The notes below the pieces were generated by a model. It was not told the DNA's origin. It did no database searches and was given only the letters and a program-made list of their open reading frames with translations. Both the position numbers and the translations under genes were made by a program. A DNA stretch of 64,000 bases from Escherichia phage P1. Positions 31,660 to 37,841 of this stretch are shown here, piece by piece (the stretch's first letter is position 1; every line of letters starts with the position of its first letter). Where the stretch lies: the sequence record AF234173.1; one strand, 5' to 3'.

Positions 31660-32220
31660 ATGCTAATAGGCTATGTACGCGTATCAACAAATGAACAAAA
31701 CACTGCTTTACAACGAAACGCTCTTGAAAGCGCAGGATGTGAGCTAATTTTTGAGGACAAGGCGAGCGGCAAAAAGGCTGAGCGCCCTGGGTTAAAAAAG
31801 GTACTCCGTATGCTTTCCAGAGGTGATACCCTGGTCGTATGGAAGTTAGACCGTCTTGGGCGCAGCATGCGTCACTTAGTTGTGCTGGTGGAAGAGCTGC
31901 GTGACAGAGGCATTAACTTCCGGAGTCTCACTGACTCCATCGACACCAGTACACCAATGGGGCGCTTTTTCTTTCACGTAATGGGGGCGCTGGCAGAAAT
32001 GGAACGTGAGCTTATCGTTGAACGTACACGCGCTGGACTTGATGCAGCTCGCGCAGAAGGTCGTATAGGTGGGCGTCGGCCTAAATACCAAGAAGAAACA
32101 TGGCAGCAAATGCGGCGATTGCTGGAGAAGGGCATCCCCCGTAAGCAGGTTGCAATCATCTATGATGTGGCTGTTTCCACGCTTTATAAGAAGTTTCCGG
32201 CGTCATCATTTCAATCCTAA
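31660..32220 (+). CDS. cin: Cin serine DNA invertase (Hin/Gin/Cin family)
   Basis: 186-aa ORF, MLIGYVRVSTNEQ... with catalytic Ser; stop codon lies inside cixL. Confidence 0.97.
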   Translation: MLIGYVRVSTNEQNTALQRNALESAGCELIFEDKASGKKAERPGLKKVLRMLSRGDTLVVWKLDRLGRSMRHLVVLVEELRDRGINFRSLTDSIDTSTPMGRFFFHVMGALAEMERELIVERTRAGLDAARAEGRIGGRRPKYQEETWQQMRRLLEKGIPRKQVAIIYDVAVSTLYKKFPASSFQS

Positions 32221-32237
32221 ACCTTGGTTTAAGAGAA
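32212..32237. other. cixL: cixL crossover site (CAATCCTAAACC-TT-GGTTTAAGAGAA)
   Basis: 26-bp imperfect palindrome at the cin-proximal edge of the inverted repeat; inverted partner at 36468-36493. Confidence 0.8.
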
Positions 32238-32826
32238 CTCGGTACCAGCGGTGAAAAGATCCCCCTGTTGAGCACGGCTAACACATGGAGTGCACGCCAG
32301 ACTTTCAACGGCGGGATCACCGGGGCGCTGACAGGGAACGCCGATACCGCAACGAAATTGAAAACAGCCAGAAACATTAATGGCGTCAGGTTCGATGGTT
32401 CTGGTGACATTAATATCAATACTCTGGTATCGCGCGGTCGCGTAACGGCCCTGGAGGCGAATGCACAGGGAACATCCGGGATTCAGCTGTATGAGGCATA
32501 CAACAATGGCTACCCTTCCCCCTATGGCAATGTGCTTCACCTTAAAGGTGCCACCGCTGCTGGCGAAGGTGAGTTATTCATTGGCTGGAGTGGCACGAGC
32601 GGTGCCCATGCGCCCGTACATATCCGTTCGCGGCGGGATACTGATTCTGCCAACTGGTCTGAATGGGCGCAGGTCTATACGTCAAAAGATTCAATTCCCG
32701 GCGTCAATGCCAAAGGGGATCAGGATACCTCTGGTAATGCGGCTACAGCGACCAAGTTGCAGACAGCATGTACTATCAACGGTGTCTCGTTTGATGGTTC
32801 TAAAAATATTGAGCTAACGGCTGAAA
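32226..32826. repeat. Left 0.6-kb inverted repeat of the C segment
   Basis: ORF-track proteins 32461-32817(+) and 35888-36244(-) are near-identical, as are 32229-32540(-) and 36165-36476(+). Confidence 0.8.
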
Positions 32827-34874: not shown

Positions 34875-34877
34875 AAT

Positions 34878-37841
34878 TTACACCTGTGCGACGTTATACC
34901 ATATGCCATTGATGTATTTTTGTATCGGCCTGAAGCTAGCTTCATCATCGCCATCAACTTTACCAATAATCCTTAATCCGGTAAGTGCGTGTCCGGCTAT
35001 TTCATAACGCCCTCCACGCGCCATCAATTGAACAACACGTGTGCCAAGTCGGACATCTCTCACATAGCGTGAGTCAAAATTGCCATAATTTCCGGGAATA
35101 ATTTGCGCACCGCAAAGCCAGTTACCGTTATTGTCCATGTACGCCTGACCATCGGTGCCATTGGCTGTCCTTGAGTTATTAATCATGTAGATGCCAAATT
35201 GCTTGTTCCCCAGTCCACCTATCATGAACTTTCGGTCGGCGTGATTCTGGCGAAGTAACGCCTGAGCGCTATCAGTGTTAACTATATTTTTCCCAAAGAT
35301 AGCGTTGTTATCGCGCATCTGAATCCACATACCATTACTGCTGTTAATAGCAAAACGGTCTGAAAGTGTCTCCCCTGAAACATTAAGGCCACGCCCCATC
35401 GAAACAGCGCCAGTAGCGTTATTAATCCATAATGGCCTTAATCCGTTATAAGTCCCCATGTTGTCACCGGAGTTTGTCAACATGAAGTATGTATTTGAAC
35501 CATCATTACGAATAAAGAATCCGTAATTACCATAAGCAATACGTAGGCCGTTTGCTGATTTTGATATGACTTCGCCATTTACAATGGCATTGACAAGAAC
35601 ATACAAAGCATCCCATTTAAGATTCATCAGGTCTTTTGTTGTGGTACTTTGTTTGCTTCTCCATTTGAAATATTCATTGCCGTTGTCGCCTGTTTCAAAC
35701 CACATGTATGAATCAGTATCGCTGTCGGCATCATTTTTAAAACCAATCTTCGCCCAGTCAGTATTCCGAATCCAGGCAAGGATTGAGTCGTTTTCAAAAG
35801 TAAGTCCACCGGACAAGGTATCGCCTGTCTTTTGAACCGCGTTATCAGCCTTGTTTACCGTTTCCTGTAGATTTAAATCTTCCGCCGTTAGCTCAATATT
35901 TTTAGAACCGTCAAACGAGACGCCGTTGATAGTACATGCTGTCTGCAACTTGGTCGCTGTAGCCGCATTACCAGAGGTATCCTGATCCCCTTTGGCATTG
36001 ACGCCGGGAATTGAATCTTTTGACGTATAGACCTGCGCCCATTCAGACCAGTTGGCAGAATCAGTATCCCGCCGCGAACGGATATGTACGGGCGCATGGG
36101 CACCGCTCGTGCCACTCCAGCCAATGAATAACTCACCTTCGCCAGCAGCGGTGGCACCTTTAAGGTGAAGCACATTGCCATAGGGGGAAGGGTAGCCATT
36201 GTTGTATGCCTCATACAGCTGAATCCCGGATGTTCCCTGTGCATTCGCCTCCAGGGCCGTTACGCGACCGCGCGATACCAGAGTATTGATATTAATGTCA
36301 CCAGAACCATCGAACCTGACGCCATTAATGTTTCTGGCTGTTTTCAATTTCGTTGCGGTATCGGCGTTCCCTGTCAGCGCCCCGGTGATCCCGCCGTTGA
36401 AAGTCTGGCGTGCACTCCATGTGTTAGCCGTGCTCAACAGGGGGATCTTTTCACCGCTGGTACCGAGTTCTCTTAAACCAAGGTATTGGATAACAGCAAG
36501 AATGCTTGTTTTGGCCAGAATATCGCGACCAACTGACGTTAAGTCAGTCTGAGAAACAGTGTCTGTACCGGTAAAGTACGGCAATTTATTTGCGCCTGTC
36601 GCAAGACCAGCAAGCGCGGTTAAAGTTGCATCAAGTGGCTGTTTCCCTGCCAGCGCATTTGTCATTGTTGTCGCAAAGTTCGGGTCATTGCCCAGTGCTG
36701 CTGCAAGCTCATACAGGGTATCAAGAGCTTCAGGTGATGAGCCGACCAATGCAGAGATAGCAGCCCGTACGTAAGCAGTCGTAGCGATCTGCGTATTGTT
36801 TGTGCCCTGTGCAGCCGTAGGCGCAGTAGGGACACCCGTTAATGCAGGGCTTGCCAAAGGCGCTTTGAGAGCCAAGGCATTGTTGATAGTTGTGCTGTAA
36901 TTCGGGTCGTTATTGATCGCAGCCGCTATTTCTTTCAGCGTATCCAGTGTGCCAGGCGCACCGTTGATAAGTGCAGTTATAGCTGCCTTAACAAAGGCTG
37001 TATTTGCGATCTGCGTGCTGTTTGTACCTTGCGCTGCCGTCGGCGCGGTTGGCGTTCCTGTCAGACTCGGGCTTTCTATTGGCGCTTTGGTATCAGCCAG
37101 ATCTTTTATAGACTTAACAGCTTTAGGGGTAGCCGCCATTGTTTCGCTGTCGCTGTTAGTTGCGCTACTGAGCTGAACTAATCCCTTTTGCGTTGTGCTT
37201 GCATCCTGTGCCGTATACTTGCTTTTCGCCAGATCGTAGGCTTTTTTAACTGCCAGCGAACTTGCAGCAACATCACTTCTGGTACTGGTTACAGAGTCTG
37301 AAATATCAATGCCGATCGAGCGGTTGATACGCTCGGATGTATCAATCATCTCCTGGGTAATGGCAGATACACTAGCAGGGATATTCACCGTACAAACAAG
37401 CAGCTCCCCATCTCCTAACTGATATGAATCGGTATAGGTTCTGGCAACAAATTCAGCCGCATGAATATGTGACGCGGTATTCACCTGGTAGGTATCTTCT
37501 CCAAGGAGGTATCTTCCCTTCAGCACAATTGCATATTTCTTGCCTGCACTAAGTGCAAGAGAAATATCCTTACGTTGCTGAATAGTTACCTGGTAAAATT
37601 CACCAATATCCACCGACGCCGCGCCTGCGGTTTTATCACCATCCACTGAGGTAATTAACAGGTTCATCCCACCGCCAGGCTTAGGTAAGAAACCGGCATA
37701 AAATCCCGGGTCAACAATCCCCCTGAATTTTCGGTTTAGCGCGGCTGACAGATATGGTTCGTGGTATTGCACATCGGCCACCAGAGCCAACGACTCGGAT
37801 GATGGGTAAGTAACCGATGTAACAACTGTAACGTCATTCAT
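34878..37841 (-). CDS. S: S tail fibre (constant Sc part outside, variable Sv part inside the C segment)
   Basis: 988-aa product from ATG 37841 (MNDVTVVTSV...); the reading frame crosses cixR. Confidence 0.85.
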   Translation of the reverse strand: MNDVTVVTSVTYPSSESLALVADVQYHEPYLSAALNRKFRGIVDPGFYAGFLPKPGGGMNLLITSVDGDKTAGAASVDIGEFYQVTIQQRKDISLALSAGKKYAIVLKGRYLLGEDTYQVNTASHIHAAEFVARTYTDSYQLGDGELLVCTVNIPASVSAITQEMIDTSERINRSIGIDISDSVTSTRSDVAASSLAVKKAYDLAKSKYTAQDASTTQKGLVQLSSATNSDSETMAATPKAVKSIKDLADTKAPIESPSLTGTPTAPTAAQGTNSTQIANTAFVKAAITALINGAPGTLDTLKEIAAAINNDPNYSTTINNALALKAPLASPALTGVPTAPTAAQGTNNTQIATTAYVRAAISALVGSSPEALDTLYELAAALGNDPNFATTMTNALAGKQPLDATLTALAGLATGANKLPYFTGTDTVSQTDLTSVGRDILAKTSILAVIQYLGLRELGTSGEKIPLLSTANTWSARQTFNGGITGALTGNADTATKLKTARNINGVRFDGSGDININTLVSRGRVTALEANAQGTSGIQLYEAYNNGYPSPYGNVLHLKGATAAGEGELFIGWSGTSGAHAPVHIRSRRDTDSANWSEWAQVYTSKDSIPGVNAKGDQDTSGNAATATKLQTACTINGVSFDGSKNIELTAEDLNLQETVNKADNAVQKTGDTLSGGLTFENDSILAWIRNTDWAKIGFKNDADSDTDSYMWFETGDNGNEYFKWRSKQSTTTKDLMNLKWDALYVLVNAIVNGEVISKSANGLRIAYGNYGFFIRNDGSNTYFMLTNSGDNMGTYNGLRPLWINNATGAVSMGRGLNVSGETLSDRFAINSSNGMWIQMRDNNAIFGKNIVNTDSAQALLRQNHADRKFMIGGLGNKQFGIYMINNSRTANGTDGQAYMDNNGNWLCGAQIIPGNYGNFDSRYVRDVRLGTRVVQLMARGGRYEIAGHALTGLRIIGKVDGDDEASFRPIQKYINGIWYNVAQV
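35880..36479. repeat. Right 0.6-kb inverted repeat of the C segment
   Basis: Reverse complement of 32226-32826. Confidence 0.8.
36468..36493. other. cixR: cixR crossover site (TTCTCTTAAACC-AA-GGTATTGGATAA)
   Basis: Inverted partner of cixL; lies inside S. Confidence 0.8.

Follow-up and report, generated by a model that had tools for sequence, protein, structure and literature searches.

Anatomy and natural orientations of the C segment of bacteriophage P1, a Cin-operated invertible segment exchanging tail-fibre C-termini

Introduction

The C segment of bacteriophage P1 (Punavirus P1) is a founding example of programmed DNA inversion and phage host-range switching, known since the early 1980s and now a textbook case. 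The choice between the S and S' fibres sets which bacteria can be targeted, which is of practical value, as P1 serves routinely as a vehicle for transduction and delivery (bioRxiv 10.1101/2022.07.24.501295, PMC13172314). Recombination between the cix sites by Cin is stimulated by Fis (PMC6606824). A similar arrangement is found in the G segment of phage Mu (Gin/gix), in which, as in P1, S has its constant 5' part outside the segment and the S/U and S'/U' cassettes lie inside. The Hin/hix system of Salmonella resembles Cin/cix in its Fis- and enhancer-dependent serine invertase, its 26-bp sites and the location of the enhancer within the invertase gene. Here, we describe the corresponding locus in a stretch of 64,000 nucleotides of P1 DNA (the window), weigh other explanations of its structure and compare it with these systems.

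Results

The cin and C-segment region of the window was 99.9% identical over 6.5 kb to P1 AF234172, colinear with it and at identical coordinates, and AF234172 is annotated at the matching coordinates with cin, the enhancer, cixL, cixR, the crossover points, Sv', U', U, S, R and LPs. The table of SNPs relative to AF234172 covers positions 1–39500 of the window and, the IS5 shift left aside, holds only 6 SNPs. IS5 is located at 7652 in AF234172 and at 6503 in the window, where the end of the element, at 7697, is separated from the start of mod (~9595) by 1898 nt and, in addition, a 4-nt duplication. By this arithmetic, IS5 is at the mod1902 position, and the window apparently represents the second sequenced laboratory strain, mod1902::IS5. 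All parts of the switch are real and intact in the window. The original prediction had taken the region for a Cin-operated switch of tail-fibre C-termini, and the annotation of AF234172, the in-silico inversion and a natural inverted plasmid all bear this out; the region is almost certainly the C segment of P1.

The invertase gene and its control elements lie to the left of the segment:

31538–31621, + strand: P2cin and P1cin, predicted sigma-70 promoters upstream of cin (AF234172 annotation; window identical)
31660–32220, + strand: cin, serine DNA invertase of 186 aa, Ser9 catalytic (Pfam, Gin structure match)
31678–31749, strand not applicable: annotated recombinational enhancer (Fis-dependent), cin codons 7–30 (in AF234172 'enhancer of Cin-mediated C-segment inversion', identical in the window)

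Judged by its sequence, Cin belongs to the small serine invertases (Hin, Gin, Cin, Pin), with a resolvase domain (Resolvase, PF00239, 4.6e-51, residues 3–135), a C-terminal helix-turn-helix (HTH_7, PF02796, 1.9e-18, residues 138–181) and a catalytic serine close to the N-terminus, which is Ser9 in Gin and Cin and Ser10 in Hin. It aligned with the Mu Gin structures 3UJ3 and 4M6F (8.6e-89) without gaps over 182 residues (1–182), and Ser9, in the motif YVRVSTNEQ, aligned with Gin residue 9, a position occupied by Ala in the crystal construct 3UJ3 and by Ser in 4M6F. Fis-dependent invertases have specific Fis-contact residues in their DNA-binding domain, which in Hin are Gln151, Arg154 and Leu155 of helix 1 (PMC3798978), and these are conserved in Cin as Gln150, Arg153 and Leu154 within WQQMRRLLEKG. 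The cin gene showed zero differences from AF234172. A simple consensus promoter scan gave no match at the annotated P2cin and P1cin sites. In the enhancer, which lies about 475 bp from the cixL crossover, the identity to Mu gin at third codon positions was 54% versus 38% for the remainder of the gene, a slight rise. The enhancers of such systems act in cis and carry two Fis sites. Degenerate 15-bp consensus patterns for Fis sites found no match in 31660–31780, but this motif is too loose to count against the enhancer; because of this degeneracy, the assignment rests on identity with the annotated AF234172 element.

A site search found two cix sites, inverted and 26 bp long as predicted:

32212–32237, + strand: cixL, 26-bp crossover site, core TT at 32224–32225, holds the cin stop (site search; GenBank crossover 32224/32225)
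36468–36493, − strand: cixR, 26-bp crossover site within the S frame (codon 454), core TT on the − strand (site search; GenBank crossover 36480/36481)

The sequence of cixL is CAATCCTAAACC-TT-GGTTTAAGAGAA, and that of cixR, on the − strand, is TTATCCAATACC-TT-GGTTTAAGAGAA. The two sites agree at 22 of 26 positions, with all 4 differences in the outer half-sites, and in both of them the half-sites agree as a dyad at 8 of 12 positions. They are the only two matches in the 64-kb window, with 0.00 expected from shuffles. Their inverted orientation and common non-palindromic TT core fit what is required of the sites of an invertase. The stop codon of cin (TAA, 32218–32220) falls within cixL, as had been noticed earlier.

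The sites delimit a segment with long repeats at its ends:

32225–36480, strand not applicable: invertible C segment, 4256 bp, here in the C(+) orientation (repeats, annotation, natural inverted form)
32225–32849, + strand: left inverted repeat, encoding S/S' residues ~455–654 (repeat and base-by-base comparison)
35856–36480, − strand: right inverted repeat (repeat and base-by-base comparison)

These values agree with the expected 4.26-kb segment with terminal repeats of 0.6 kb: the inverted-repeat arms, 32214–32849 and 35856–36491, are 636 nt long and 98% complementary. Base-by-base comparison revealed that the arms are perfectly identical across 32221–32782, i.e., over 562 bp, of which 558 bp lie inside the crossover point, that mismatches begin at 32783 and 32795, and that identity decays from 32822. 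The peptide pair quoted as an example of imperfect repeats, STVSRLMV versus STASRLTV, is really encoded in the sequence, but it comes from two mirrored 118-aa ORFs (32461–32817 on the + strand and 35888–36244 on the − strand) whose frame is not that of S/S'; read in the frame of S/S', the two mismatches behind it are synonymous. The further claim, that imperfection of the repeats confines recombination to cix, is not supported, because repeats perfect over 562 bp are ample substrate for RecA and cannot confine exchange in this way. Cin is held to cix by its site specificity as a serine invertase and not by divergence of the repeats. A homologous exchange within the perfect repeat gives the same product as exchange at cix, and therefore sequence alone cannot locate the crossover.

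The tail-fibre genes and cassettes are arranged as follows:

32226–33782, + strand: Sv', silent alternative C-terminal part of the fibre, without its own start codon or promoter (gp37_C domain)
33785–34318, + strand: U', silent alternative tail-fibre assembly chaperone, 177 aa (Pfam Caudo_TAP, 1.3e-35)
34322–34341, strand not applicable: GC-rich hairpin between the convergent U' and U stop codons (T-run on the + strand only)
34347–34874, − strand: U, expressed tail-fibre assembly chaperone, 175 aa (Pfam Caudo_TAP, 1.1e-37)
34878–36480, − strand: Sv, variable part of S inside the segment (ORF, annotation)
36481–37841, − strand: Sc, constant part of S outside the segment (ORF, annotation)
34878–37841, − strand: S, expressed tail fibre, 987 aa (reads across cixR; ORF, annotation)
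37853–38287, − strand: R, first gene of the tail-fibre operon, 144 aa (ORF, annotation)
38318–38336, − strand: LPs, late promoter for R-S-U, or R-S'-U' after inversion (AF234172 annotation; window identical)

The window has the layout of a tail-fibre switching cassette, with the constant 5' part and the promoter outside the segment and two convergent in-frame cassettes inside it. As had been foreseen, the constant part of S reads through cixR into Sv, with U following, and this continuity of Sc with Sv and then U identifies S-U as the pair expressed in the orientation of the window. S contains the Pfam domains Phage_fiber_2 and Gp34_trimer, and its residues 648–986 match the structure of the Mu tail fibre S (5YVQ, 6.6e-197). 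A Pfam search gave no match for R. The frame of Sv' is open from 32190 via cixL to 33782, and in-silico inversion at the cix centres joined the constant part to it, again in line with the earlier reading: the frame was kept and U' came next after the fibre gene, whose product, S', has 972 aa; in S', Sv' supplies residues 455–972 and the first 654 aa are the same as in S. U and U' share 56% identity; the variable tips of Sv and Sv' show weak local similarity only (33% over 66 aa).

The C-segment region differs from that of AF234172 at five single bases, all of them non-synonymous and confined to the final 130 codons of Sv; the window alone has two of the changes and AF234172 alone has three. 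Read from the window to AF234172, the substitutions are A859T, I948R, K961E, E967D and S969I, and the part of the expressed Sv that they alter is its receptor-binding tip. In the silent Sv'/U' cassette and in the cix sites, as in cin, there were no changes between the two sequenced laboratory lineages of P1. One tentative reading, which we put forward with less than even confidence, is that the switch shelters one cassette while the other adapts, so that the tip of the expressed fibre might be undergoing ongoing, independent adaptation in laboratories. The paper on the P1 genome may already have noted this.

Both orientations were found in natural plasmids. NZ_CP122833 aligned with the in-silico inverted window without gaps and with 36 mismatches in 8278 bp, versus 2214 mismatches with the window as it is, and it is annotated with a fused tail-fibre gene of 972 codons. 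Its sister plasmid, NZ_CP122909, has the orientation of the window. In PLSDB, counted with junction probes carrying 1000 nt of Sc, P1-type Sv is joined to Sc in at least 30 records and P1-type Sv' in at least 40; probes of 1125 nt with 100 nt of Sc were uninformative, as the unfused copy beside cin covers 92% of such a probe. Clearly, both orientations exist among nearly identical natural plasmids. These orientations, like the anatomy, the reading frames and the intactness of the parts, can be read directly from the sequence. The sequenced strain itself probably still switches, as its intact parts and its relatives suggest.

Discussion

The mechanism that we propose takes Fis dependence, cleavage chemistry, inversion frequency and receptors from the literature. 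LPs, outside the segment, drives transcription of R and Sc toward cixR, and the segment end adjoining cixR completes the fibre gene. In the state of the window, Sc followed by Sv and then U yields S of 987 aa, whose receptor is the LPS outer core of E. coli K-12. Cin, made from its own promoters left of the segment, would bind the two inverted 26-bp cix sites as dimers and, together with host Fis on the enhancer in the 5' end of cin, would form an invertasome on supercoiled DNA. Ser9 would then cleave both sites at the central TT/AA dinucleotide, one subunit pair would rotate by 180 degrees, and the ends would be religated. The flip of 4256 bp would bring Sc in frame with Sv' and then U', giving S' of 972 aa, which differs in its receptor-binding tip and has the O-antigen of Shigella flexneri and E. 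coli O3 as its receptor. As inversion is a rare event, phage from lytic lysates carry mostly the parental fibre, and those from induced lysogens carry both fibres mixed. The receptors and the inversion behaviour of S and S' are described in bioRxiv 10.1101/2022.07.24.501295, PMC13172314 and PMC10999674.

Could the segment be inverted wholly or largely by host RecA-dependent homologous recombination of the 0.6-kb repeats, with Cin and cix in a minor role? The perfect 562-bp stretch of the arms is far longer than RecA requires to exchange strands efficiently, and the natural inverted plasmid NZ_CP122833 cannot discriminate between the two routes, as both leave the same product sequence. However, a complete invertase system, comprising cin, two cix sites with matching cores and the enhancer, is placed exactly at the repeat ends. 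The inverted repeats of Mu G are only ~34 bp long, and yet G inverts through Gin, which also counts against the RecA route. Moreover, the Mu G segment (AF083977) has cix-like gix sites at its annotated boundaries, and the literature assigns C inversion to Cin acting at cix (bioRxiv 10.1101/2022.07.24.501295). We regard inversion mainly through RecA as unlikely; homologous exchange most plausibly runs alongside Cin-mediated exchange at cix as a minor route.

A frozen switch, i.e., a relic locked in S-U by long propagation on E. coli K-12, would fit the selection of S-U only by this host and a CRISPRi screen on E. coli, which found S, U and R to be essential and cin, Sv' and U' to be dispensable (PMC10695390), and it would also fit the confinement of the amino-acid changes in the window to the expressed Sv. 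Nevertheless, cin, both cix sites, the enhancer, Sv' and U' are undisrupted and without difference from the reference P1, and the reading frames of Sv' and U' are intact, so that we consider a locked relic very improbable. Least credible of all, to the point of being negligible, is a multi-site shufflon with more than two fibre variants, like Min of plasmid p15B. One additional 14-nt core-like match, TAAACCTTGAGTTA, does occur inside Sv' (33581–33594, − strand), but one such match is within chance expectation (0.52 per window), and in a hand alignment across the full site it agrees at just 14 of 26 positions. The shufflon type, represented by p15B Min and R64 Rci, has more than two crossover sites; the 64-kb window holds only two full 26-bp sites, and this reading was rejected. 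Nothing was found that contradicts a two-site switch operated by Cin at cix.

Taken together, these results leave the established picture of the C segment unchanged. What they add is, on the one hand, a correction, namely that the site specificity of Cin and not the divergence of the repeats places Cin exchanges at cix, and, on the other hand, sequence data showing that near-isogenic natural P1 plasmids have been deposited in both orientations.

Comparison with known systems

The central part of the C segment is 91–94% identical to Mu G, and Mu gix, TTATCCAAAACC-TC-GGTTTACAGGAA, resembles P1 cix, although the core is TC in Mu and TT in P1. Mu G spans ~3 kb between its annotated boundaries, compared with 4256 bp for P1 C. 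The inverted repeats of Mu G are short; unlike Mu G, P1 C carries an additional repeat of ~0.6 kb at either end, which codes for ~200 shared residues within the segment. The invertase genes are also oriented differently: in Mu, the 5' end and the enhancer of gin adjoin G and transcription of the gene runs away from the segment, whereas P1 cin is transcribed toward C, with its stop inside cixL. The contrast with Hin is of another kind, as Hin flips a promoter in a ~1-kb segment that holds hin itself, whereas Cin is encoded outside its segment and swaps coding 3' ends. Among P1-like prophage plasmids (P7, D6, RCS47 and many PLSDB records), the architecture cin–C segment–Sc–R is shared and both orientations have been deposited. 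Many P1-like plasmids bear other Sv/Sv' cassettes, and P7 and RCS47 match the C segment of the window in the inverted orientation with ~89% identity.

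Identity of the Region and Its Differences from the Reference Genome

A megablast search of a phage collection matched the stretch 31500-38000 to P1 itself (AF234172 / NC_005856) with 100% coverage and 99.9% identity, and over this range the coordinates of the AF234172 record are those of the window. The feature is P1's own C segment, the classical invertible element, whose switch is already known. The inversion segment is confirmed and, with the exception of a single faulty inference, the interpretation in the original prediction is supported. The elements of the region are as follows:

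31660-32220 (+), cin, encoding Resolvase and HTH_7 domains
31678-31749, enhancer within cin codons 7-30, annotated in AF234172, about 475 bp from the cixL crossover
32212-32237 (+), left crossover site cixL, CAATCCTAAACC-TT-GGTTTAAGAGAA
32226-33782 (+), Sv', the silent variable part; frame open from 32190 across cixL to 33782
33785-34318 (+), U', tail-fibre assembly protein of the lambda-gpK type
34347-34874 (-), U, of the same lambda-gpK-type family and 56% identical to U'
34878-37841 (-), S, 987 aa, with tail-fibre repeats and a T4 gp34-type trimerisation domain
36468-36493 (-), right crossover site cixR, TTATCCAATACC-TT-GGTTTAAGAGAA
38318-38336 (-), LPs, late promoter annotated in AF234172, with identical sequence in the window

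In a base-by-base comparison of positions 1-39500 with AF234172, IS5 (1195 bp, reverse orientation) was found at 6503-7697, versus 7652-8846 in the reference. It sits in mod, displaced by about 1.15 kb relative to AF234172, with about 1902 nt between its end and the mod start, and the numbering re-synchronises after 8850. This position fits the mod1902::IS5 allele, presumably that of the second P1 strain sequenced alongside AF234172, and the window appears to be this second laboratory strain.

The IS5 shift aside, six single-base differences were found. The only one outside Sv, the variable part of the expressed fibre, is at 19820, within pro (19014-20033), where the window has C and AF234172 has T. 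The five differences in 30000-39500 are all non-synonymous and confined to the final 130 codons of Sv, at 34936, 34941, 34961, 34999 and 35267 (S residues 969, 967, 961, 948 and 859, respectively), mapping to the receptor-binding tip. When polarised with a natural plasmid, D6, another P1 isolate and D108 as outgroups, 34936 and 34961 proved private to the window and the other three private to AF234172, while Sv', U', cin and the cix sites showed zero differences. This pattern, the sole mildly unexpected point at the P1 C segment, suggests either that the expressed fibre tip has adapted independently in the laboratory or that there are errors of sequencing.

Crossover Sites and Inverted Repeats

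As predicted, inverted 26-bp cix sites, with exact outer ends at 32212 and 36493, flank a segment of about 4.26 kb; their central dinucleotides are 4256 bp apart, and the crossovers annotated in GenBank (AF234172) are at 32224/32225 and 36480/36481. The cin stop codon was also correctly placed inside cixL (TAA, 32218-32220). The two sites are alike at 22 of 26 positions, with all four differences in the outer half-sites, and each is an imperfect dyad (8/12 half-site positions matching) around a TT core that is common to both and not palindromic. The 64 kb contain these two matches and no others, versus 0.00 expected. A multi-site shufflon is ruled out, as there are two full sites only and the single extra core-like match is within chance. 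The core-like sequence TAAACCTTGAGTTA lies inside Sv' at 33581-33594 (-), matching the cix centre at 12/14 positions and the full site at 14/26; one match of that grade occurs in the window versus 0.52 expected by chance.

The repeats of about 0.6 kb at the segment ends were recovered by a repeat finder as arms of 636 nt (32214-32849 / 35856-36491) with 98% complementarity. They are imperfect overall, as had been claimed, but not throughout: base-by-base comparison revealed no mismatch over 562 bp (32221-32782 / 35923-36484). In left-arm coordinates, the earliest mismatches are at 32783 and 32795, and identity collapses from 32822 on. In the frame of S and of S', its variant after inversion, the mismatches 32783/35922 (Gly640) and 32795/35910 (Asp644) are synonymous, and the two proteins first diverge at residue 655.

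The original prediction had concluded from imperfect repeats that recombination is confined to cix. This does not follow, because the arms match perfectly over 562 bp, and because it is the site-specific enzyme that confines exchange to cix. The perfect repeat is a good substrate for RecA-dependent exchange, which would give the same product sequence as exchange at cix. The example offered, STVSRLMV versus STASRLTV, came from two mirrored 118-aa ORFs inside the repeats (32461-32817 (+) and 35888-36244 (-)), which are off the S/S' frame and most likely spurious repeat products. Since the duplicated coding stretch is uniform and the next two mismatches are synonymous, the sequence suggests homogenisation of the arms by gene conversion.

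Both Orientations In Silico and in Natural Plasmids

The constant part of S (Sc) crosses cixR into Sv, followed by U, with the crossover in S codon 454; residues 455-654 are encoded twice, once per repeat arm. When 32225-36480 was reverse-complemented and translated from the start of S, the same constant part was joined in frame to Sv', as the original prediction had it, giving an uninterrupted S' of 972 aa with U' directly after it. The first 654 residues are identical to those of S; the variable tips (333 aa in S, 318 aa in S') show a weak 33% match over the last 66 residues only.

The natural E. coli plasmid NZ_CP122833 carries an annotated 972-codon fused tail-fibre gene, with cin on the other side. 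Its 8278-bp region aligned without gaps to the inverted window with 36 mismatches, versus 2214 to the window as is. NZ_CP122909, likewise with Sus scrofa faeces in its source field, matches the window colinearly at 99.9%. In PLSDB, searched with 2025-nt junction probes that combine 1000 nt of Sc with the repeat and a further 400 nt of unique sequence, at least 30 records join Sc to P1-type Sv and at least 40 to P1-type Sv', counts in which assemblers have picked one orientation out of possibly mixed populations. Thus, both states are common among deposited P1 relatives. Among Escherichia fergusonii plasmids, each of 122,823 bp, probes matched at the same coordinates in opposite orientation; the tail-fibre junctions of NZ_AP028849 are at the same record coordinates as those of NZ_AP028829 and NZ_AP028860. 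NZ_AP028849 versus NZ_AP028829/NZ_AP028860, and NZ_CP122909 versus NZ_CP122833, are apparently near-isogenic with the C segment in opposite orientation.

Fibre Expression and Host Range

From outside the segment, the annotated LPs drives R and Sc, and segment orientation determines the 3' part and the chaperone that are expressed with them. The window was correctly read as expressing S-U. Residues 648-986 of the 987-aa S match the solved structure of the Mu tail fibre S (5YVQ, E = 6.6e-197). In a CRISPRi screen on E. coli, the phage required S, U and R but not cin, Sv' or U' (PMC10695390), which fits this C(+), or S-U-expressing, state. An 8-bp GC-rich hairpin (34322-34341) lies between the convergent U' and U stop codons, with a T-run only on the + strand (U' direction). 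As the - strand S-U transcript has no T-tract after it, S-U transcription may continue past the hairpin, antisense to U', Sv' and cin.

S recognises the LPS outer core of E. coli K-12, while S' needs O-antigen and is active on Shigella flexneri 2a and 5a and E. coli O3 (PMC13172314, PMC10999674, bioRxiv 10.1101/2022.07.24.501295). Because inversion is infrequent, lytic lysates keep the parental fibre; induced lysogens are mixed (bioRxiv 10.1101/2022.07.24.501295).

Cin, the Enhancer, and Comparison with Known Systems

Serine invertases cut their sites at the 2-bp core, and rotation of subunits within a Fis/enhancer invertasome exchanges the strands (PMC3798978), and Cin-cix inversion is stimulated by Fis (PMC6606824). 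Cin has Ser9 within YVRVSTNEQ and keeps Gln150, Arg153 and Leu154, the counterparts of Hin Gln151, Arg154 and Leu155, which are conserved uniquely among Fis/enhancer-dependent invertases (McLean et al., PMC3798978). Over 182 residues, Cin aligns to Mu Gin without a gap (E = 8.6e-89). Third-codon-position identity between cin and gin is 54% in the enhancer region versus 38% elsewhere, a modest signal that is consistent with a second constraint on this sequence.

The cassette logic is common to the P1 C and Mu G segments, and their recombinases, sites and central DNA are highly similar. They differ, however, at the segment ends, where P1 carries an additional repeat of about 0.6 kb on either side, in the core dinucleotide (TT in P1, TC in Mu), and in the direction of the recombinase gene: cin is transcribed towards its segment, with its stop in cixL, whereas Mu gin is transcribed away from G.
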